A stretch of DNA of 64,000 nucleotides, taken from a phage. The translations under genes were made by a program, and so were the position numbers. The stretch lies in the sequence record PV636258.1; one strand, given 5' to 3'. This document shows positions 7,848 to 18,691 of the stretch, piece after piece; the stretch's first letter is position 1, and the number at the start of each line of letters is the position of its first letter. The notes beneath the pieces are model-generated. The model had not been told where the DNA came from. It was given only the letters and a program-made list of their open reading frames with translations, and made no database searches.

Positions 7848-8198
7848 ATGAAAATCCTCATTCCACGCAACGTTGTCGCTGTTGCTATTGATTACCGTGG
7901 TGATGCGAAGATGATTAACGCTGTCCGTTATTATCCGGAACAGAATAAAATCGTCCCACAATTTCAACTGAATACCAATCCTTCTTCTAAGGATTTCGGT
8001 TCTTGGCGTCAGGTGGGTTTGGCTCGTACCCAGGTCAATGCCCAGCATTTTATTTCCGAAAAGACGAAAACCGCCAAGCAAATTTGGTTGGTGACGAATG
8101 ATCGTCGTTTCCTGCCTATCTGGTCTCTGGGACAGCCCGTAGTAAGCCCCGAAGATATCCAACTCGAAGCCGAGGTGAAGGATGACGCATCTGTCTAA
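7848..8198 (+). CDS. hypothetical protein
   Basis: 116-aa ORF tightly packed between neighbours. Confidence 0.4.
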   Translation: MKILIPRNVVAVAIDYRGDAKMINAVRYYPEQNKIVPQFQLNTNPSSKDFGSWRQVGLARTQVNAQHFISEKTKTAKQIWLVTNDRRFLPIWSLGQPVVSPEDIQLEAEVKDDASV

Positions 8199-9423
8199 AA
8201 TGCCGCAGGGATATAAAGCCCCTGAAAAATGGAAATACCCGATTGATCTGGCAGTAGATTATCGTAAGCCAGAAAATCGCATGTACCTGCTCAAGGCATG
8301 GGTGGAGGCGCTATCCTACACTGAAGAGCATAACCAGCAAGTCCGTCTGATGGATTATGCCATCGAGGTTACAGAAGGCATCACACAGCTCGAAAAGATC
8401 GAGCGCAAGATTTGGATGGCCTTTTTGTGGGGGTGTTGCTATAATGGGATTGGACCATGGACAATTTACAGTGAATTTCCTGTACCCCCACAATCTCCGA
8501 AAGAGTTTCAGCGATTTTCTGATTGGTATAACCTGAATTTTGATCGTATGCGCTTCGATACAGATTGTCGTTATCGTAAGTCGAAAATGATTCCGTGCGT
8601 TCAGTCCTATATCGATTGGTTGGGTGGTAAAACCCAAATGGATTCTTTTCGTTGGATGTTGGAATGCACTACCAAGGAAGACCAGTTCACCGAACTGTGG
8701 AATACGGCGATGTCATGGAAATACTTCGGTCGCCTGAGCGCATGGAACTTCCTGGAAGCCCTGAACATGGTCTTCGGTAACATATGGGATATAGACGTCC
8801 CTGGGTTCATGTTGCGTGACCGTGATGGTAGCGAATCCAATCGTAACGGCGCGGCGTTCTTATCCAACCGTGATGATTGGGTGACCAAGCACGGGAAGAA
8901 AAAGATCAACGGTTGTCCTATTACAGACGAAGAATGTGATATACTCGAAACCGACCTTGAGAAAGCGTTTCAGGAATGCGTTGAAGAGTTTGGCCACATC
9001 ACGTTTATCAATCGTCTGAACTTTGAGACCTCCGGTGCTTGTTGGTTGAAGAAATTCTTCCGACTGAAGAATACCCGTTACATCGGGTGGGACGCCGAGC
9101 GTACATGGGACGAGATCGATTATATGGAACGTATTTGGCCTGAATACTCCTGTGCACCTCTCTGGGAAGCCCGTTCACTCTGGCTACCAGATACCCTGTT
9201 ATGTGAGAAGGCTCCTGCAGGGCACGTTCCAGGCGTCCAGAAGTGGAAGATGCCCGTGTTCTTTGAGACGGGTGTTCCTCTACATATCTGGCATTTACAG
9301 CAGGGTACACGTTGGGAACCGTCTGAGGTTTGTTTGTCAGTTGGTAAATTGGACACCATGAGCCGAAATGGTACTGTGTATCCTTCTAAAAGTGTGAACC
9401 TCATGACACTCTTGAAACGCTGA
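8182..9423 (+). CDS. hypothetical protein (413 aa, Trp/Cys-rich)
   Basis: Long ORF with no motif I can assign; overlaps upstream gene end by 17 nt. Confidence 0.5.
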   Translation: MTHLSKMPQGYKAPEKWKYPIDLAVDYRKPENRMYLLKAWVEALSYTEEHNQQVRLMDYAIEVTEGITQLEKIERKIWMAFLWGCCYNGIGPWTIYSEFPVPPQSPKEFQRFSDWYNLNFDRMRFDTDCRYRKSKMIPCVQSYIDWLGGKTQMDSFRWMLECTTKEDQFTELWNTAMSWKYFGRLSAWNFLEALNMVFGNIWDIDVPGFMLRDRDGSESNRNGAAFLSNRDDWVTKHGKKKINGCPITDEECDILETDLEKAFQECVEEFGHITFINRLNFETSGACWLKKFFRLKNTRYIGWDAERTWDEIDYMERIWPEYSCAPLWEARSLWLPDTLLCEKAPAGHVPGVQKWKMPVFFETGVPLHIWHLQQGTRWEPSEVCLSVGKLDTMSRNGTVYPSKSVNLMTLLKR

Positions 9424-9431
9424 TATAAATA
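9424..9431 (+). promoter_or_regulatory. T4-type late promoter-like box TATAAATA
   Basis: Exact TATAAATA 28 nt upstream of ATG at 9459. Confidence 0.3.
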
Positions 9432-9458: not shown

Positions 9459-9626
9459 ATGTTACAAGATCTGTTGGTTTATGCGCTTCCTGGCGTTGTT
9501 GTCGGCTTCGTAGCTGGCGCTCTGGTCTTCCGTAAACACGCGCAAGACGGTGAAGTGATTGTTCAGAAGGGTAAAGACATCCTGGAACAAATCGAAGCCA
9601 AACTGGACGAGCTGAAGAAAAAGTAA
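9459..9626 (+). CDS. small membrane protein (55 aa)
   Basis: ATG 9459 after GAGGATATTATC; hydrophobic N-terminus LLVYALPGVVVGFVAGALVF; below ORF-track size cutoff; the minus ORF 9462-9719 is its shadow. Confidence 0.4.
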   Translation: MLQDLLVYALPGVVVGFVAGALVFRKHAQDGEVIVQKGKDILEQIEAKLDELKKK

Positions 9627-9640
9627 TCTGATTGCGATTG

Positions 9641-9695
9641 CGTTCTTCAATAAAGGGGAATGGGTTATTATTAGCCCGTTCCCCTTTCTTTTTGC
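9641..9695 (+). terminator. intrinsic terminator-like hairpin of the recurrent TTCAATAAA family
   Basis: GTTCTTCAATAAA then AAAGGGGAATGGG / CCCGTTCCCCTTT stem with TTATTATT loop, followed by CTTTTT. Confidence 0.5.
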
Positions 9696-9707: not shown

Positions 9708-9899
9708 ATGACACCTCAATACAAAATATTGGTCACCAGCCGTTGTTATGCTTATGGACAGGGTGAAGCAATATCAGTACACACAGTTGTAGTTGATTTT
9801 GAAAACAAAGAACAAGCAGATTTGGCATTCTATAATATGCAGCAGAGCACAGCTCCTGCCGATATTGGCGTTAAACAAGTTTATACGAAATTATACTGA
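9708..9899 (+). CDS. hypothetical protein
   Basis: 63-aa ORF. Confidence 0.35.
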   Translation: MTPQYKILVTSRCYAYGQGEAISVHTVVVDFENKEQADLAFYNMQQSTAPADIGVKQVYTKLY

Positions 9900-9910
9900 G
9901 GTCCTATATC

Positions 9911-10123
9911 ATGGCAATGCAACGAATTGAAGACATGTCTGCGCTCGATATGGAAGCGACTTTTGGTGATTACTTTGAGTCCACCCCAAAACAAAAAGAA
10001 CCTCTGGTTGGTCGTTTGGTTGTTTCTGAAGCGTTCGCCCAGAAGGTTCGCGAAGGTCTTCCTGCAGAATATAGTTGTTTCCGTAATGGCGCTCCTGTTA
10101 TCGTCATGGGAGAATCTAAATGA
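9911..10123 (+). CDS. hypothetical protein
   Basis: 70-aa ORF; GAGG upstream of ATG. Confidence 0.4.
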   Translation: MAMQRIEDMSALDMEATFGDYFESTPKQKEPLVGRLVVSEAFAQKVREGLPAEYSCFRNGAPVIVMGESK

Positions 10124-10506
10124 CACAGTCCGAATACAAACAGTACCTGTACGATCTGTTCATGAAAGAAACGGATGGTACACTCCACCCTAAGAAAGCC
10201 ACTATCGTCGCGTTGCATTCTGAAGGTAATTTGTCTATAGCATATATCCGAAAAGAACTCGATTTGATGGGAATCGAATATGAAGACCATATCACGGATA
10301 CACGTGCTTTAAAAAGAGCAACAGCAATCGTTCTTCACACCGTTGCAACAATTATGCATCGCCACCATGTTTCTTTTGACGATGCAATAACTCCACAGTA
10401 TCATGAAGAACGCTGGGAATTGCTCAAATTGAACGGGGCGCACAGTTCTCACAAAAATCAACTTCTTGGTATGACGAAGGAACAACTCGTGGATGGTGTG
10501 TTATGA
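10120..10506 (+). CDS. hypothetical protein
   Basis: 128-aa ORF, start overlaps upstream stop. Confidence 0.45.
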   Translation: MTQSEYKQYLYDLFMKETDGTLHPKKATIVALHSEGNLSIAYIRKELDLMGIEYEDHITDTRALKRATAIVLHTVATIMHRHHVSFDDAITPQYHEERWELLKLNGAHSSHKNQLLGMTKEQLVDGVL

Positions 10507-11612
10507 TTTACCTTCTGTTTGTGGTTCCTGTAATTTTGGCCATCTTGTTTATAATATATCACCGCAAGACCCATGAGCCAAAGGAGACTTTGATCGCCAC
10601 GGCCATTGTTATCGTATTGTCTTGCCTTATCCAGTCGGGATTATATGCTGCTTTCTCCCTTGGTAGTTCTGGGGACGTGGAAATCCTGAATGGATATGTA
10701 ACTGATAAGCAACGGAATAAGGTGGGTTGTGAACATTCTTATGAATGTATGTGTTATTACACAACATCTTGTACAGGTTCAGGAAATAACCGATCTTGTA
10801 CACAAACGCGTCATTGCAGCACATGCTATGAGCACTCTTATGACGTTGATTGGGACGTATTAACAACCGTCGGTGATCTGAGCATTGACCGTATTGATCG
10901 TCAGGGTACTACAGAGCCTCCGCGTTGGGCACAAGTTAAAATCGGGGAACCTGCGGCACGTGAACATTCATATATGAATTATGTGCTGGGCAACAAAGAT
11001 TCATTATTCTCTAAATCTGACCAGCAATTCGCTGAGAAGTTCAAAGAGCATATCCCTTCATATCCGAGGGTGTATGATTATTACCGAGTAACTCGTGTTC
11101 TGAATATGTCAGGGATGGACATTCCTGTTGATTACTGGAATGACTATCTGAACAATACTCTGAAAACATTAGGTGCTTCACGTCAGGTTAATATCGTTTG
11201 GGTTGTGACTTCTGGCCAGCCTGTTGAATATTTTCAGGGACTTCTATATGCATGGTCTGGCGGTAAAAAGAACGATGTTATTGTAGTCACCGATATTTCA
11301 AAGGATATGAAAATTAATTGGGGTAAGTCTACGTCATTTGCCGACGGCATGAACAACATGGAACTCCATTCTCGTAACGGACTTTCATTGACTGGGAAAC
11401 CAATGGGCATATCCGTGTTCCAAGAAGTTGCGGTCAATATCAGTAAGGGATACAACCGAGTTGAGATGAAGGAAATGGAATATCTGAAATGGCGAGATCT
11501 TAAAACTTGGGAAGTGATTATCGTCGTGCTGTTTGGATGTATCCCATTTACCGCAGTTTTCATATTAGGCCGCATGCAGTACAATGGTCGAACTTATAAA
11601 CGTTTGTTTTAA
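10503..11612 (+). CDS. membrane protein with Cys-rich extracytoplasmic region
   Basis: N-terminal TM helices, Cys cluster (CEHSYECMCYYTTSCTGSGNNRSCTQTRHCSTCYEH), C-terminal TM VIIVVLFGCIPFTAVFILG. Confidence 0.5.
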   Translation: MIYLLFVVPVILAILFIIYHRKTHEPKETLIATAIVIVLSCLIQSGLYAAFSLGSSGDVEILNGYVTDKQRNKVGCEHSYECMCYYTTSCTGSGNNRSCTQTRHCSTCYEHSYDVDWDVLTTVGDLSIDRIDRQGTTEPPRWAQVKIGEPAAREHSYMNYVLGNKDSLFSKSDQQFAEKFKEHIPSYPRVYDYYRVTRVLNMSGMDIPVDYWNDYLNNTLKTLGASRQVNIVWVVTSGQPVEYFQGLLYAWSGGKKNDVIVVTDISKDMKINWGKSTSFADGMNNMELHSRNGLSLTGKPMGISVFQEVAVNISKGYNRVEMKEMEYLKWRDLKTWEVIIVVLFGCIPFTAVFILGRMQYNGRTYKRLF

Positions 11613-11627
11613 CAAGAGGAAGTAAAG

Positions 11628-12197
11628 ATGTCACAACGTAAAGGTATTTCAATTGGTTGGATCGTTGGGTTGGCAATTCTAGCATTTGCTGTAATTGGGA
11701 TTGGCAGTGTGGTTAGCTATTTCAATGACTTCAACCGCATTGAACAACAGGTCAAAAAGTTCAACAAAGATTCTGAAAACCACCTGAGCAATTATACGCT
11801 CAAAGTTCAGGAGACGGCGCAGATTCCTGACATGTACAAAAACGGTTTGAAGGAAGTGATCAAAGATACTTTCCAAGGCCGTTATGGCGCAGACGGTTCC
11901 AAAGCAGTAATGCAATGGATTCAGGAACAGAATATTCAGTTTGATTCATCTTTGTACAAAGAGATTCAGGTTGTTATCAGCTCAGGTCGGGATGAATTCC
12001 GCATTAGCCAAACTAAAAAATTGGACGCATGTGCGATCTATGAAACTAAACTTGGCCAGTTCCCTGGTTCTCTGATAGCAGGAATCTTTGGATATCCGCG
12101 TATCGATCTTGACAAGACATGTCAGGTGGTGAGTGACACCCGTACCCAGGCCGCATTTGACTCCGGTGTCCAGACTCCGATTAACTTCAAAGGCTGA
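11628..12197 (+). CDS. LemA-like membrane protein
   Basis: N-terminal TM (GWIVGLAILAFAVIGIGSVV) followed by LemA-like YFNDFNRIEQQV region. Confidence 0.45.
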   Translation: MSQRKGISIGWIVGLAILAFAVIGIGSVVSYFNDFNRIEQQVKKFNKDSENHLSNYTLKVQETAQIPDMYKNGLKEVIKDTFQGRYGADGSKAVMQWIQEQNIQFDSSLYKEIQVVISSGRDEFRISQTKKLDACAIYETKLGQFPGSLIAGIFGYPRIDLDKTCQVVSDTRTQAAFDSGVQTPINFKG

Positions 12198-12201
12198 TCT
12201 T

Positions 12202-12624
12202 ATGAGCGTGAAACTAACCGAATCTCTGACGCTGGAACAGCAACAGGCGTTACTGGATGAAGTGGTAATCTCTGCTGTCAAGCAGGGCATTATCCGTGAC
12301 GACACGTTGTTGACGCGCCCCGAAATGATCCATCATCTGGTGGTGTGCCTGGGCGAAGCCAATAATCCTCGCAAAAAGATTGTAATGTTCAAAGAAGGCA
12401 TTATTTATCCCAATGGAAGATTCGCTTGGTTAACCCTATCGGGAAGTCATCCGGATTTGAAGGATGAACAGAAAGAAATCAAAACTTCTGTTCCGGTAAC
12501 GCCATACACTGAAGGAGTTGATTTATTGTCTTGGTTTGAGACCATCAATACCATCTATGTCATGGCACCTGATGGTAAGCCAGCACAGGATCTGCGTGGT
12601 GGGGTTGTAGGTTCGGAAGACTAA
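12202..12624 (+). CDS. hypothetical protein
   Basis: ORF 12133-12624 trimmed to ATG 12202 (MSVKLTESL). Confidence 0.45.
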   Translation: MSVKLTESLTLEQQQALLDEVVISAVKQGIIRDDTLLTRPEMIHHLVVCLGEANNPRKKIVMFKEGIIYPNGRFAWLTLSGSHPDLKDEQKEIKTSVPVTPYTEGVDLLSWFETINTIYVMAPDGKPAQDLRGGVVGSED

Positions 12625-12626
12625 TA

Positions 12627-12675
12627 GTTCTTCAATAAATGGGGATAGGGTATTATTGCTCTATCCTCTTTTTTA
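12627..12675 (+). terminator. terminator-like hairpin of the TTCAATAAA family
   Basis: GTTCTTCAATAAA + GGGGATAGGG/CTATCCTC stem with TATTATT loop + TTTTTT. Confidence 0.5.
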
Positions 12676-12686
12676 TGGAATGTGTT

Positions 12687-13058
12687 ATGTCTGACAAGCC
12701 AAGAAAGATTGCAATTATTGGAGGAGGAATCGGCGCTCGGACTATGGCCACTATCCTTCAAGAAAAGCTGAAAGGCGTTGAAGTAGAATGTATCAGTGTA
12801 GACGATATTCCTAAACGTCGTTGTGAACCAGGTGAACGCATGATAATTTGTGATGATCTGGTAGAAAGTGAACGCAAAACATTGGTATCTCAAGCGGTGG
12901 CTCAGTTACGGAAGGCAGATATTTCGTATTGTGAAGCAGAAGCCGATGACAGAGACATAATTGCGTCACAACGTTATCAAAAGCCGCCGCGCCTATATGG
13001 AGCCGCCCAACATAAACGTCAGGCTAAGAAATATAAAAATCGGAGTAAACGAAAATGA
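12687..13058 (+). CDS. hypothetical protein with glycine-rich IAIIGGGIGA motif
   Basis: ORF 12639-13058, ATG 12687; dinucleotide-binding-like GGGxG motif but protein too short for a full Rossmann oxidoreductase; basic C-terminus. Confidence 0.4.
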   Translation: MSDKPRKIAIIGGGIGARTMATILQEKLKGVEVECISVDDIPKRRCEPGERMIICDDLVESERKTLVSQAVAQLRKADISYCEAEADDRDIIASQRYQKPPRLYGAAQHKRQAKKYKNRSKRK

Positions 13059-14333: not shown

Positions 14334-17075
14334 ATGAAAATGCGCAAGTCCGAGCATTTCGTGCGCTCTTCTTCTACCATCGTCGGACAGACATTCAATG
14401 TCAAGATGACGGATAAATTATTTGAAACATTATTTTCAAGTCTCTACAAATATAAAGAGGCGGCGTCTTTGCGTGAGACGTTGTGTAATGGTATAGACTC
14501 GCATAATATGCGTGATCGCCAACAACGCTGGATGCCATCGCATTATGCTCCTCTCACTCCTATGCCTCAACGATACAGCAAACATCTTGCCCCCAAGGGA
14601 ACTCCTGTTGTTGTACATTTACCGGATGTTATGGAACCCTGGCTGGAAATTAAAGATTATGGGGTTGGTCTTCCATTAGAAATGATCATCGGCGAGCCTA
14701 TTACAGCGCGTGAAGATGAAGTGCTGGTTGAAGGTAATATCGTCGTGAAGGAAGACGAAATCCCTGATAGCACTGCTGTTATTGGTACACCTGGTTATTA
14801 TAATGGGGTACTGGTATTCCGCGCTGAGGATGGCGAGATCATTCGTGGACCTGGTTTGTATACAACACTCTTCCATAGTACAAAAGAGGACGACGACGGG
14901 CAAATAGGGGCGTTTGGGCTAGGTTCTAAATCCCCATTTGCGGTATCTGATTCATTTACAGTAGAAAGTCGCTATGAGGGGAAACTGTATCGCTTCCTGA
15001 TGTATCTGAATGCGGACAGAATCCCAACTGTGGATCTCATTACCAAGGATTTAGATACCCGTGATCCTAAACCGGAAGACACTGATGAGTTCAACGGCCT
15101 GACTGTTAAAGTTCCTGTAAAGAATCAGCGTTTTACCGCCTTTGAACAAGAGTTGGTCCGTTTGGGTCGAGTGATGCGACCTTCAATGCGACCGAAGGTT
15201 GAAAACGCCAGTTATTCTTTCCGTTGGTCTGACATCAACTTCGAAAACCGTGTAGGCAACACATATATCCAACCGAAGTCAGATTCCGACAACATCCACT
15301 ATGCTGTCATGGGCGGGGTTTCTTACCCGATAGATCTCGACCAATTGGACTCTGAAATATGCACCGTGCTGGAAAAATTCCCGAGTTCCTATACCTTCTT
15401 CGAACTTGGAGAACTGAATGTACCGCCGTCACGCGAAGACTTGTCATACGACGAATTCACTCGTGAAAGCCTGAACCGCGTGTTCAAGCATGTGGCCGAA
15501 AATATCATGCAAGCGAAGATGTATGAACTTCGCCAAGCGGAGTCAATGGGTCCTCTTATGTTGTATATGAAAAAGACTCAGCTGACTGATATGTTCGGTA
15601 GTGGTTTCCGTAAATTGGTCGAACGGGAATTTCCTGCAGATAACCGTTTCTACAAAGGCACGTTCCGTTATATCGGAGCGCCGGACGTCGTGCGCGATTA
15701 CTCTTTGGATGCACCTTTCCGGTCTATTGGTAGTCCTTACGAAATTGAAGTACACGACAACGGTGTAGTACACGACAGCATTTATGTGAACTCTGTCGGA
15801 AATTGGTTGAAATCTAAATCAAAAATTGCTGTTATTATTGATAACTCGAATCGTGCTCGAAACCTGAAGATACAAACAGCACGCAATAACTTCAATGTCG
15901 TTATCGTCGTCAAACCGAATGAAAATTATTTCAGTAATCGGAATCAGCTTGCGGCACATAAAGAATCATTTACCAACCATGAGGAATTGAAGTCTTATTT
16001 TGAATCATGGATCGGTGTACAAGAAACAACGCCGGACTACCTGGTCTTTGCCGATAAACTGATCGAGGTCTTTGGCGATTTATTCAATCCGGATGAAGTC
16101 TATTTCATGCATGAAATGGAATATGTTCGCCCGACCGTTGAAAAAGATCCTGGGATGTTTAGTTTCTATTACAATTCATTTAACTTCGACAGCGTTTATG
16201 AATTAGATGGAAAAACCGTTTCAGATATTATTGATTCGGGCAAAAAGATCGTATATATCGAAGTATCTGGCCGAGAAGGTATCCATAAAATTCATGGTAA
16301 TACCTTACGACAATCCACGGCTGGACATTTGCGTGAAGCGATGGAAAGAACGAAGTTCGGCGAGAATGGAAACGAAAACCTGTTTGATTTGCTGGGAGCA
16401 CATCCAACAATCGTTCTTGCGCGTCGTAAATCTGTTCCGATGATGAAGAAATTCCCAGAAGTATTCATCCCCATTGACGCAGTGTTTGATATGTTGCTTG
16501 AGCATTATAAAGATGAATTTCAGGCGCTTGAATCTAAGAAACTCCTGAAACTTCGCAAGGGTATAAACATCATGTCTCATCGCATTGATTATGGTGCCAA
16601 GCTGTTGATTGATTCCCATGGAAAAGTTACGGATGGCTATGCCCATCATCAACACAGGGCAAAAGCAATCATCAGTTATGCGAAACAACAAATCACTGAA
16701 GAAGAATGGAAGATTGTTCGTATGCTGGCCAAACGAAATCCGTCTGGATCGGGGTACGGTTATTTCCGCAAGGCTGTTGAGGAATTACATTATCGTATAG
16801 AAATGCCTTTCCCAACTACGAGATTTTTCCGCGCCTGTAACCAGTTAACTCAAGTTGTTGATTTATTGAATGAAAAATTAACTGCTGAAGGATTTGATGA
16901 GATAAATGTCACTAGCACTATATCTCAAAAGCAAAAGGCCAAAAACCGATACCGAGTTGAATGTCATCGTTTGGTGAAGTTCATGATGTCAAAATATCAG
17001 CCTTCGGCACACAACGCGATTGAAGATGCCACTAGATTTGTGAAGGCTATTTCAAAACGTATTCTCGGGGCATAA
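14334..17075 (+). CDS. rIIA: rIIA-like protein (GHKL-type ATPase domain)
   Basis: 913 aa; N-box-like ETLCNGIDSH, G1-like IKDYGVGLP and G2-like GAFGLGSKS; followed immediately by rIIB-like gene as in T4-like phages. Confidence 0.7.
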   Translation: MKMRKSEHFVRSSSTIVGQTFNVKMTDKLFETLFSSLYKYKEAASLRETLCNGIDSHNMRDRQQRWMPSHYAPLTPMPQRYSKHLAPKGTPVVVHLPDVMEPWLEIKDYGVGLPLEMIIGEPITAREDEVLVEGNIVVKEDEIPDSTAVIGTPGYYNGVLVFRAEDGEIIRGPGLYTTLFHSTKEDDDGQIGAFGLGSKSPFAVSDSFTVESRYEGKLYRFLMYLNADRIPTVDLITKDLDTRDPKPEDTDEFNGLTVKVPVKNQRFTAFEQELVRLGRVMRPSMRPKVENASYSFRWSDINFENRVGNTYIQPKSDSDNIHYAVMGGVSYPIDLDQLDSEICTVLEKFPSSYTFFELGELNVPPSREDLSYDEFTRESLNRVFKHVAENIMQAKMYELRQAESMGPLMLYMKKTQLTDMFGSGFRKLVEREFPADNRFYKGTFRYIGAPDVVRDYSLDAPFRSIGSPYEIEVHDNGVVHDSIYVNSVGNWLKSKSKIAVIIDNSNRARNLKIQTARNNFNVVIVVKPNENYFSNRNQLAAHKESFTNHEELKSYFESWIGVQETTPDYLVFADKLIEVFGDLFNPDEVYFMHEMEYVRPTVEKDPGMFSFYYNSFNFDSVYELDGKTVSDIIDSGKKIVYIEVSGREGIHKIHGNTLRQSTAGHLREAMERTKFGENGNENLFDLLGAHPTIVLARRKSVPMMKKFPEVFIPIDAVFDMLLEHYKDEFQALESKKLLKLRKGINIMSHRIDYGAKLLIDSHGKVTDGYAHHQHRAKAIISYAKQQITEEEWKIVRMLAKRNPSGSGYGYFRKAVEELHYRIEMPFPTTRFFRACNQLTQVVDLLNEKLTAEGFDEINVTSTISQKQKAKNRYRVECHRLVKFMMSKYQPSAHNAIEDATRFVKAISKRILGA

Positions 17076-17107: not shown

Positions 17108-18691
17108 ATGAATGCTATAGAAAAACGTATTCTCAAGCTGTTGAATGAGAACAGAAGTCAAAGTTCAATAGCCAGTGAATTGGGCGTACCGCGCTCAATG
17201 ATACAACGCGTGTCGGATAAAGAACTGGGAGTGGATCCAGCTTCGATTAAGTCTCTGACTACTGAACAGATTCAAGAAATACAAACCAAGAGCAGCAAAG
17301 GTGAAAGCAATTCTTCTCTGGCATCAGTTTATGGCGTCAGTGCCAAAACAATTGCCCGCGCCCTGATGGTTCGTATCATCAAAGAATCTAATAACGTGGT
17401 CGTGATTTCGCCAATTAAAGAATTGACTGAAGAAGGGAAAATCCCCGACACCTATGAAGTTCTGGAAGGTTCGGTGTCTGTCGATTCTGAAGGCGAAGAA
17501 TGGTATGTTGGCCGTTTCCTGGAAAACCAAACAGTGTTTATCTGTATGCGTTACGATAGCTCTGCTGCTATTCAGGCCAAACTTTTCAGAAGCGAAGAAC
17601 TGAAACCGTTAGAAACTCGGTCAAGCCGCTTCAATGAAGAAAACATTTCTCCGTTGGCCGAATTGGCGACAGCACTGGTTGATGGCGTTACCAAAGTCAA
17701 TGACGGCGTGGTAATCAGTGTACAACATGACGGCGAAACATACCCGATGCGCGGTTCCCTTGATGCCCGTCGGCGTGTGGGATACTTTGACGCAATTCTG
17801 GGGCGTACACTTCGACTGGCGTTGTCGTCTGTTGTTTTCTCGGTTAAGACAACGGCTGTTGAGGAAGAGTCTGGCGACAAACAAACTCAGAATTCATTTA
17901 ACGAAAAAGATCTGTCGGTGTTCTTGAATGAGCACCAGATCATGATTTTACCGGAAAGCATCGTTATCGTTATGGATGGCAAACCGGAAACGATAACCAC
18001 AAGCCATCAGGCGTATGATCGTATTGTTGAAGCGATTAAAAATCGTGACGTCAAAACAGCGTACACTCTGATGAAACCGCGTGAAGCCATCAGCAAATTC
18101 ACTACAGGCATGGTTGATTTATCTGACAACCGTGTGCGCTGGGGTGGCTATGACATCACGGGAACTTCCGTCGCCAAACGCGTTTTGGCACTGGCATTAA
18201 AAGGCGATTATCCAAACTTAGAACGCTTGGGTCGTTTTCTGGACAAAATGTTTCAAAACCCGAGCGCCGCGCTGGTTCAGTCCGGTCGAATCTATGAATT
18301 CATGGCATATTCGGATATCGAAATTCATGAAGACGGTGATATCATCCTGTATAAATCCGTTCGCGGTAACTACATGGACAAGCGCACAGGAAAAGTTAGT
18401 AATGCTCCTGGGACCATTGTTCGGATGGCTCGCTCATTCGTGAACGATAACAACAAAGATCTGTGCTCTTACGGTCTTCACGTTTGTTCTCTGGCTTATC
18501 TGAAACAATGTTTTGGTAGCCTGGGACAACGCGTTGTCCGTTGCAAACTGAACCCGAAAGATATCGTGTCTATCACTGATGATTATGGCTCCAGTAAAAT
18601 CCGCTGCTGTGAATATCTGGTATTAGACGATTACACCACGGAATACAACCGCCAACATAAATCCATTGATGTTGAAGGTCTATACAAGTAA
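17108..18691 (+). CDS. rIIB: rIIB-like protein
   Basis: 527-aa ORF directly downstream of rIIA-like gene; assignment by position and size only. Confidence 0.5.
   Translation: MNAIEKRILKLLNENRSQSSIASELGVPRSMIQRVSDKELGVDPASIKSLTTEQIQEIQTKSSKGESNSSLASVYGVSAKTIARALMVRIIKESNNVVVISPIKELTEEGKIPDTYEVLEGSVSVDSEGEEWYVGRFLENQTVFICMRYDSSAAIQAKLFRSEELKPLETRSSRFNEENISPLAELATALVDGVTKVNDGVVISVQHDGETYPMRGSLDARRRVGYFDAILGRTLRLALSSVVFSVKTTAVEEESGDKQTQNSFNEKDLSVFLNEHQIMILPESIVIVMDGKPETITTSHQAYDRIVEAIKNRDVKTAYTLMKPREAISKFTTGMVDLSDNRVRWGGYDITGTSVAKRVLALALKGDYPNLERLGRFLDKMFQNPSAALVQSGRIYEFMAYSDIEIHEDGDIILYKSVRGNYMDKRTGKVSNAPGTIVRMARSFVNDNNKDLCSYGLHVCSLAYLKQCFGSLGQRVVRCKLNPKDIVSITDDYGSSKIRCCEYLVLDDYTTEYNRQHKSIDVEGLYK

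Follow-up and report, generated by a model that had tools for sequence, protein, structure and literature searches.

Genomic context of two adjacent Kuttervirus genes

We analysed a 64,000-nucleotide stretch of phage DNA (sequence record PV636258.1; hereafter the window) with respect to two adjacent open reading frames (ORFs), ORF A and ORF B, that encode predicted membrane proteins. The window derives from the genome of a Kuttervirus (Ackermannviridae), and its positions 10000–12700 share 97–99% identity with numerous phages of Salmonella and E. coli O157; in phage CBA120 the counterparts of ORF A and ORF B are orf253/gp198 and orf254/gp199, respectively. The initial annotation had described a Cys-rich polytopic membrane protein of 369 residues paired with a LemA-like protein, and both ORFs lie exactly where it had placed them (Table 1). 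The ATG of ORF A and the stop codon of the gene before it overlap (ATGA), a gap of 15 nt on the same strand separates ORF A from ORF B, and ORF B is preceded by a strong Shine-Dalgarno sequence (AAGAGGAAG). Since the homologues of ORF A and of ORF B each number in the hundreds, both are real genes and not chance ORFs. They form part of a tightly packed six-gene unit (9708–12624) with a terminator-like hairpin at either edge, and the phages LIMEstone1 and Mooltan carry annotated terminators at the sites equivalent to both hairpins.

Table 1 Features of ORF A, ORF B and the borders of their gene unit. Positions refer to the window; TM, transmembrane; AF2, AlphaFold2.
Feature	Position	Strand	Basis
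Intrinsic-terminator-like hairpin, 16-bp stem and T run, upstream edge of six-gene unit	9652–9687	+	
ORF A, 369 aa, predicted TPM-domain inner-membrane protein; phrog_2087	10503–11612	+	
ORF A residues 2–54, predicted N-terminal two-helix TM hairpin (TM1 2–20, basic loop HRKTHEPKE, TM2 26–54)	10506–10664	+	hydropathy, AF2, family charge bias
ORF A residues 57–158, family-specific β-rich Cys/His domain with long β-hairpins, predicted periplasmic	10671–10976	+	AF2
Cys cluster C76...C108 with H78 and H111	10728–10826	+	conservation
ORF A residues ~199–330, predicted TPM (TLP18.3/Psb32/MOLO-1) α/β domain, including W-x-GGKKNDV (251–259)	11097–11492	+	
ORF A residues 335–359, predicted C-terminal TM helix; short basic tail to 11609	11505–11579	+	AF2, hydropathy, charge bias
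Shine-Dalgarno-like AAGAGGAAG, 6 nt 5' of the ORF B ATG	11614–11622	+	direct reading of the sequence
ORF B, 189 aa, divergent LemA-superfamily protein at the profile level, predicted N-terminal TM anchor; phrog_1383	11628–12197	+	
ORF B residues 32–163, helical LemA-like domain, predicted periplasmic	11721–12116	+	hhalign to canonical LemA, AF2
ORF B Cys135 and Cys165, putative disulfide pair	12030–12122	+	co-variation
Intrinsic-terminator-like hairpin, 12-bp stem and T run, downstream edge of six-gene unit	12641–12668	+	

ORF B is a divergent LemA protein at the profile level

Direct searches did not identify ORF B as a LemA protein: the Pfam scan gave no match at E≤0.1, so that ORF B falls below the PF04011 gathering threshold, and NCBIfam and PADLOC scans returned nothing meaningful. 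At the level of the family, PF04011 was weakly matched by 5 of 45 relatives (best E 0.0016), and the profile built from these 45 sequences found the solved Thermotoga LemA structure 2ETD as its best match among Protein Data Bank (PDB) sequences, with an E value of 0.017 and a colinear alignment over the whole domain. Profile–profile comparison with hhalign against canonical LemA, represented by 31 bona fide PF04011 proteins, gave a probability of 97.0% (E 1.2e-10, 152 columns) with the TM anchor included. Because a common TM anchor could inflate this score, the comparison was rerun with the anchor removed; the two families then aligned end to end (1–130 versus 2–148; 129 columns) with a probability of 80.6% and an E value of 1.3e-5.

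The size and layout of ORF B are also LemA-like, comprising ~190 residues (184–209 in canonical LemA), one N-terminal TM anchor and a helical domain. Residues 4–35 form its sole hydrophobic segment, as defined for both ORFs by a Kyte-Doolittle window cut-off of ≥1.6, and its AF2 model is all-α. We checked the LemA signatures QRRxDLIPNL, ENYP, GTENR and YN...FP; the C-terminal Y...FP...GF and the E and G-x-x-x-R positions align in ORF B, while RRxDLIPNL is not kept and the family has its own GRYGADGSKAVMQWIQEQN motif and a C-terminal Cys pair. Judged by these profiles, ORF B belongs to the LemA superfamily as a divergent member, and its earlier description as a LemA-like protein with a single TM segment, though not recovered by any direct scan, stands on the profile–profile comparison and on the single hydrophobic segment.

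The PADLOC scan contained marginal matches of ORF B residues 9–112 (11652–11963) to LeoBC (E 1.1e-4; positions 480–567 of the 601 in the model) and to PDC-S53 (E 0.015), which probably reflect similarity of a TM segment plus a coiled coil. NCBI and UniRef list the ORF B homologue of Pectobacterium phage DU_PP_V (P0149) as 'major capsid protein', almost certainly a misannotation.

ORF A combines a predicted TPM domain with a Cys/His-rich β domain

The AF2 model of ORF A is confident, with a predicted local distance difference test (pLDDT) value of 89.3 and a predicted template modelling (pTM) score of 0.78, and consists of a two-helix TM hairpin, a β-rich domain (residues 57–158), an α/β domain (residues ~199–330) and a C-terminal TM helix. 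Hydropathy gave three hydrophobic segments (residues 1–23, 28–54 and 333–359) that match the TM helices of the model (2–20, 26–54 and 335–359), in agreement with the initial description of TM helices at both ends of the protein.

The α/β domain adopts the predicted α/β sandwich of the TPM fold, and the ORF A model can be superposed on solved TPM structures over ~120 aligned residues. The strongest fold match was to TLP18.3 (3pw9; score 11.5), followed by BA41 (5anp; 10.3), Rhom172_1776 (7tbr; 10.2), PG_0361 (2kw7; 9.9), Psb32 (8c7i; 9.6), cg2496 (2kpt; 8.8) and AscF (6adq_J; 8.3). A Foldseek search with the model concurred, returning 9h70 with a probability of 0.99 and 2kpt with 0.91. Moreover, a W-x-GGKKNDV-[IV]-V motif and D192 are nearly invariant among the ORF A homologues, and this motif aligns with the motif G-x-x-x-x-N-G-V-L-L-L-V of the Thermotoga TPM protein. 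Sequence searches with the same protein gave little: ORF A had no match in the direct Pfam scan, being below the gathering threshold of PF04536, which was weakly matched by 13 of 58 relatives (best E 1.8e-4); the family profile had no match among PDB sequences; the NCBIfam scan yielded nothing meaningful; and no PADLOC model gave a significant match. When the ORF A family was compared by hhalign with single bacterial TPM partners, one comparison was empty and the other reached a probability of 26%, confined to the region of the GxxxxN[GD]V motif. The predicted fold identifies ORF A as the TPM partner of the LemA-like ORF B.

The β domain that precedes the TPM domain is made up of five strands in the model (residues 57–74, 80–91, 98–108, 114–128 and 150–158), and a search of the PDB gave no significant structural match to it. 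A profile of residues 55–200 matched 640 cluster representatives, and among the best 150 of these the architecture was the same in 149. The dense Cys cluster noted initially was found, seven of the nine cysteines of ORF A lying within residues 76–108 (C76, C82, C84, C90, C99, C105 and C108), on what is, judging from its sequence, the extracytoplasmic side. Among 58 aligned homologues, C76 and C82 never vary, the remaining five cysteines of the cluster are 78–93% conserved, and H78 and H111 are conserved along with them. Cysteines are lost pairwise, C84 with C105 and C90 with C99, and the GAP32-like branch has jointly lost H78, C108 and H111. In ORF B, C135 and C165 co-vary perfectly, with both present in 28 sequences, neither in 17 and one alone in none. 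The simplest reading of these patterns is that the co-varying cysteines of both proteins form disulfide bonds and that ORF A has, in addition, a candidate His/Cys metal site.

Predicted membrane topology

Across the family, basic residues are concentrated in the TM1–TM2 loop and C-terminal tail of ORF A and at the N-terminus of ORF B, and the phages that carry the pair infect exclusively Gram-negative hosts. From hydropathy, this charge bias, the co-varying Cys pairs in both proteins and the nature of the hosts, we strongly infer that ORF A and ORF B reside in the inner membrane and that their large domains face the periplasm, where the disulfides would form. The arrangement of TM3 (residues 335–359) and the basic tail in ORF A, with the predicted extracytoplasmic placement of its domains, is that of the LemA-associated TPM subtype. 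The topology and TM analyses (hydropathy, charge bias and AF2) support the membrane location proposed at the outset, and we hold the identity and topology of the pair with high confidence.

The two genes are co-inherited in virulent phages

Among 50,697 phage records, tblastn detected 487 with ORF A and 502 with ORF B, ~1% of the records in each case, with a near-equal breakdown by host. The carriers comprise Ackermannviridae (among the Kuttervirus members CBA120 and Det7), Vibrio phage ICP1, siphoviruses of ~110 kb, T4-like Aeromonas phages, Atu_ph07, the jumbo phages RaK2, GAP32 and CBB and those of Erwinia, and Acinetobacter phages of 100 kb; in the phage collection the pair is confined to virulent phages of Gram-negative hosts. 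The one visible excess of ORF B consists of 15 Prevotella phage records, a host missing from the top-ten list for ORF A, and a Tenacibaculum phage and a 6-kb faecal contig are also among the ORF B matches listed; these records may carry a canonical LemA with an ordinary TPM partner.

In 79 of 80 IMG/VR viral loci a LemA-like gene lies directly downstream of the ORF A homologue on the same strand, the sole exception being a truncated contig. The homologues of ORF A and ORF B are the only two genes conserved across 103 loci, and the pairwise identities of the two proteins are correlated (r 0.91 overall and 0.63 for distant pairs; Mantel 0/500). Among 185,579 species-representative bacterial genomes just 30 loci were found, mostly on contigs of metagenome-assembled genomes (MAGs); both genes are present in 24 of them, 21 with the usual order and spacing and three non-adjacent. 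These data argue strongly that the family is almost entirely phage-borne and that both genes are inherited as one unit.

A few high-GC contigs of myxobacterial type have ORF A without ORF B in a context that looks chromosomal. In one of them (L108 5776–7131, a Kofleriaceae MAG with a GC content of 75%) the ORF A homologue sits beside a hybrid histidine kinase, a TetR-like regulator and a Ser/Thr kinase, and no LemA-like gene adjoins it; L111 and L112 are similar, and the three may be genuine bacterial representatives of a family otherwise carried by phages.

The surroundings of the pair vary: in the window it lies upstream of rIIA, in Aeromonas phage PX29 it is flanked by rnlA and goF, and in ICP1 it sits within a block of small ORFs. 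Such positions fit accessory, early-type genes, without proving when they are expressed. A protease as a further partner was considered and rejected, as the 103 loci share no conserved third gene and the 'metallopeptidase' of CBB is by Pfam an Rv2179c-like exoribonuclease. The latter, CBB gp342 (L120 643–1317), is annotated as a 'putative metallopeptidase' directly 5' of the pair in CBB/GAP32 and matches PF16473 (Rv2179c-like 3'-5' exoribonuclease) with an E value of 6e-8; a TelA (toxic anion resistance) gene is found two genes further upstream.

Relationship to bacterial LemA-TPM modules

The initial annotation had called the LemA pairing unusual. In Thermotoga and Neobacillus mesonae, however, a canonical LemA gene is followed at once by a PF04536 gene; its product carries a signal peptide, then the TPM domain, and at the C-terminus a TM helix and a tail with RGW as its last residues. 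With ORF A recognised as a TPM protein, the pairing in the window is therefore canonical; of the earlier interpretation, the LemA assignment and the membrane location hold and the claim of an unusual pairing falls away. In both the phage and the bacterial modules a single-pass LemA protein is encoded beside a membrane-anchored TPM protein, tightly packed and on one strand. ORF A shares with the bacterial partner the TM helix and short tail C-terminal to the TPM domain, and about half of the ORF A relatives end in basic-x-aromatic where the bacterial TPM partners end in RGW. Homology to the bacterial module is indicated by hhalign for LemA and by fold for TPM.

There are also clear differences. 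The TPM gene comes first in the phage pair, an order inverted relative to the Thermotoga and Neobacillus examples, and both phage proteins, unlike the bacterial ones, are below the Pfam thresholds. Where the bacterial TPM partner has a signal peptide, ORF A has a two-TM hairpin and a Cys/His-rich β domain of ~100 residues, and it lacks the Gly-rich tail of that partner. Compared with canonical LemA, ORF B lacks RRxDLIPNL and has in addition the GRYGADGSKAVMQWIQEQN motif and the putative C-terminal disulfide. In sum, the phage pair represents the known LemA-TPM module in a form specialised to phages.

We also compared ORF A with the characterised TPM proteins AtTLP18.3 (3PW9), Psb32 (8C7I), BA41/BA42, Rhom172_1776 (7TBR), PG_0361, cg2496, LMTP1 (9H70), mycobacterial AscF (6ADQ_J), C. 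elegans MOLO-1 and B. subtilis YdjH. All have the α/β sandwich and are tethered to the membrane next to a membrane complex, in most cases at the extracytoplasmic or lumenal face. Sequence identity to ORF A is just 8–16%, and these proteins have neither its β domain nor its three-TM architecture. In the literature searched, we found no paper linking LemA or TPM with phages, no described phage TPM member and no description of what the LemA-TPM pair does in bacteria; two apparent exceptions to the first of these came from authors' names in the reference lists and were discarded. As the function of the bacterial pair is undescribed in the searchable literature, there is none that could be transferred to the phage pair.

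The virion structural protein label

The ORF B family is labelled 'virion structural protein' in phrog_1383 and in RefSeq records. This label goes back to the detection by mass spectrometry of GAP32_339 and RaK2 ORF175 in purified virions, and CBB_344 was named structural by homology, the protein not having been detected in CBB virions (PMC5259590 supplementary file 5). All three are true homologues of ORF B (38–41% identity, with a query coverage of at least 92%) and have an ORF A homologue directly 5', as in the window. The two virion preparations in which the GAP32 and RaK2 proteins were seen differ from those of CBB and of LIMEstone1, whose virion proteome does not contain the homologues ORF194/195 (PMC3296691 Table 2); the main text and tables of the Sajous1 report make no mention of its homologues gp96/97 (PMC10892097). 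Moreover, the same mass-spectrometry lists hold evidently non-structural proteins (rIIB, ligase, PhoH and ClpP), and ORF B always travels with a polytopic membrane partner that has never been reported in virions. We consider it very improbable that ORF B is a virion structural protein. Because of its predicted TM anchor, its putative periplasmic disulfide, its LemA homology and its obligatory membrane partner, the virion detections more likely represent co-purifying membrane debris, which casts doubt on a structural label that has spread through RefSeq and PHROGs.

Proposed role of the pair

The reading that we favour, and to which we attach moderate confidence as a whole, is that the pair is a phage-adapted LemA-TPM module that faces the periplasm and would serve a host inner-membrane assembly as an accessory complex. 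In this reading ORF B is a LemA-like helical protein with a predicted type-II anchor in the host inner membrane, and ORF A is its TPM-domain partner with a C-terminal TM helix, in which the hairpin and the disulfide-rich Cys/His β domain replace the signal peptide. We infer that the two proteins probably form a complex, and this complex would bind a host inner-membrane assembly from the periplasmic side and stabilise or modulate it during the lytic cycle of large virulent phages in Gram-negative hosts. We give this mechanism, in which the complex would be an auxiliary or chaperone-like subunit of that assembly, rather low confidence; it is suggested by analogy with the TPM proteins characterised so far, which serve membrane complexes as auxiliary, assembly or repair subunits. 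The precedents are the repair of photosystem II (PSII) by TLP18.3/Psb32, modulation of the acetylcholine receptor (AChR) by MOLO-1, the presence of AscF in the supercomplex of complexes III and IV (CIII-CIV) and the association of YdjH with PspA (PMC13456599, PMC11237479). Somewhat more speculative still is the idea that the Cys/His β domain represents a new kind of periplasmic module, metal- or redox-dependent, with one particular inner-membrane complex of the host as its target. If it were true, this contact could preserve the integrity and energisation of the membrane or shut a DNA-entry route, and the pair, compact and dispensable-looking in tractable phages such as CBA120 and ICP1, would be the first experimental handle on LemA-TPM modules anywhere.

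Phage T4 encodes two small inner-membrane proteins, Imm and Sp, that work at the periplasmic face in superinfection exclusion. A role of this kind had been suggested for the pair in the initial annotation. By analogy, and with no homology implied, the pair might block the entry of DNA or the action of the tail tip of secondary phages at the inner membrane. The predicted inner-membrane location with periplasmic domains fits this proposal, as do the accessory-type gene regions that house the pair in several lineages and its restriction to virulent phages of Gram-negative hosts. However, no sequence or fold relationship to Imm or Sp was found; these are far smaller than ORF A and ORF B, do not constitute a conserved pair and have no homologous bacterial module. 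The pair shows no similarity to known exclusion proteins, with nothing meaningful from PADLOC, and its bacterial homologue is a housekeeping-type pair found in non-phage contexts. Its conservation across phages with differing receptors and ejection machineries likewise argues against a phage-specific block, and we regard exclusion as unlikely.

A catalytic role is less probable again. The TPM domain would in that case be a periplasmic phosphatase or nucleotidase acting on a periplasmic or membrane-lipid substrate, with the LemA protein as its anchor or regulator. Catalysis of this type has been reported for TLP18.3, Rv2345 and BA41, and ORF A matches in fold TPM proteins with reported phosphatase or ATPase activity (PMC13456599); the near-invariance of the W-x-GGKKNDV motif and of D192 also fits this reading. 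The reported TPM activities are weak, though, and AscF binds neither metal nor nucleotide (PMC13456599). The least probable proposal, to which we give very little credence, is a component of lysis timing or lysis inhibition, the periplasmic domain of which would work as a sensor in the manner of an antiholin. A membrane protein with a predicted periplasmic domain ~2 kb upstream of rIIA could be so interpreted, and lysis by CBA120 appears to be inhibited when the multiplicity of infection is high, with its holin unidentified in 2011 (PMC3184105). The linkage to rIIA is, however, found in Ackermannviridae only, no lysis gene is conserved nearby across the 103 loci, and we rejected an identity as holin since the Pfam holin matches, present in one or two relatives, are trivial similarities of a TM segment.

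To our knowledge, LemA and TPM proteins are among the most widespread bacterial membrane-protein families without an assigned function. That ~1% of sequenced phages, including model and therapy-relevant ones, carry a strictly paired, divergent LemA-TPM version turns ~500 annotations as 'hypothetical' or 'virion structural' into a defined module and provides a genetically simple system for the role of LemA-TPM at the periplasmic face of the inner membrane. What is new here is the phage-specialised variant with its family-specific Cys/His β domain, which is undescribed in the literature searched. The pair is a widespread, compact and experimentally tractable module, and the data show no surprising mechanism.

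Transcription signals and neighbouring genes

Promoter scans of the region were uninformative: six sigma-70-like sites were found versus 8.2 expected from shuffles, and the T4 late motif TATAAATA occurred three times versus 1.9 expected, so that there was neither excess nor enrichment and the timing of expression of the pair cannot be deduced from them. One sigma-70-like site, TTGACG-17-TATCAT (10 of 12 matches), lies at 10376–10404 (+) within the gene for a 128-residue protein, ~100 nt 5' of ORF A. In the segment 9424–9687, an ORF of 55 residues (9459–9626, +) encodes a TM helix and a coiled coil; it is preceded by a T4-late-promoter-like TATAAATA at 9424–9431 (+) and followed by the terminator with the 16-bp stem; a putative late promoter is annotated in LIMEstone1 at the place matching this TATAAATA.

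Further upstream, a protein of 413 residues (8182–9423, +) strongly matches PF18724 amino acid:DNA transferase (E 1.9e-57), which fits the thymidine hypermodification pathway of ViI-like phages. Downstream of the pair is a DUF7231 protein of 139 residues (12639–13058, +; E 5e-68), the N-terminus of which is weakly similar to Rossmann FAD/NAD-binding folds (Pyr_redox_2 and Trp_halogenase; E ~0.01) and which, despite its length of 139 residues, is annotated as 'FAD-binding protein' in phage Mooltan. A full-length rIIA homologue (phrog_3661; 14334–17075, +) lies ~2 kb downstream of the pair, and the ORF of 527 residues next to it (17108–18691, +) is, by its position, probably rIIB.

Among the database records that match the region, 'Pseudomonas phage Pa-sanjiao', with P. 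aeruginosa PAO1 as its labelled host, is 99% identical to Salmonella Kuttervirus DNA, and one record named 'Enterococcus...' matches as well; the host labels of both look doubtful.

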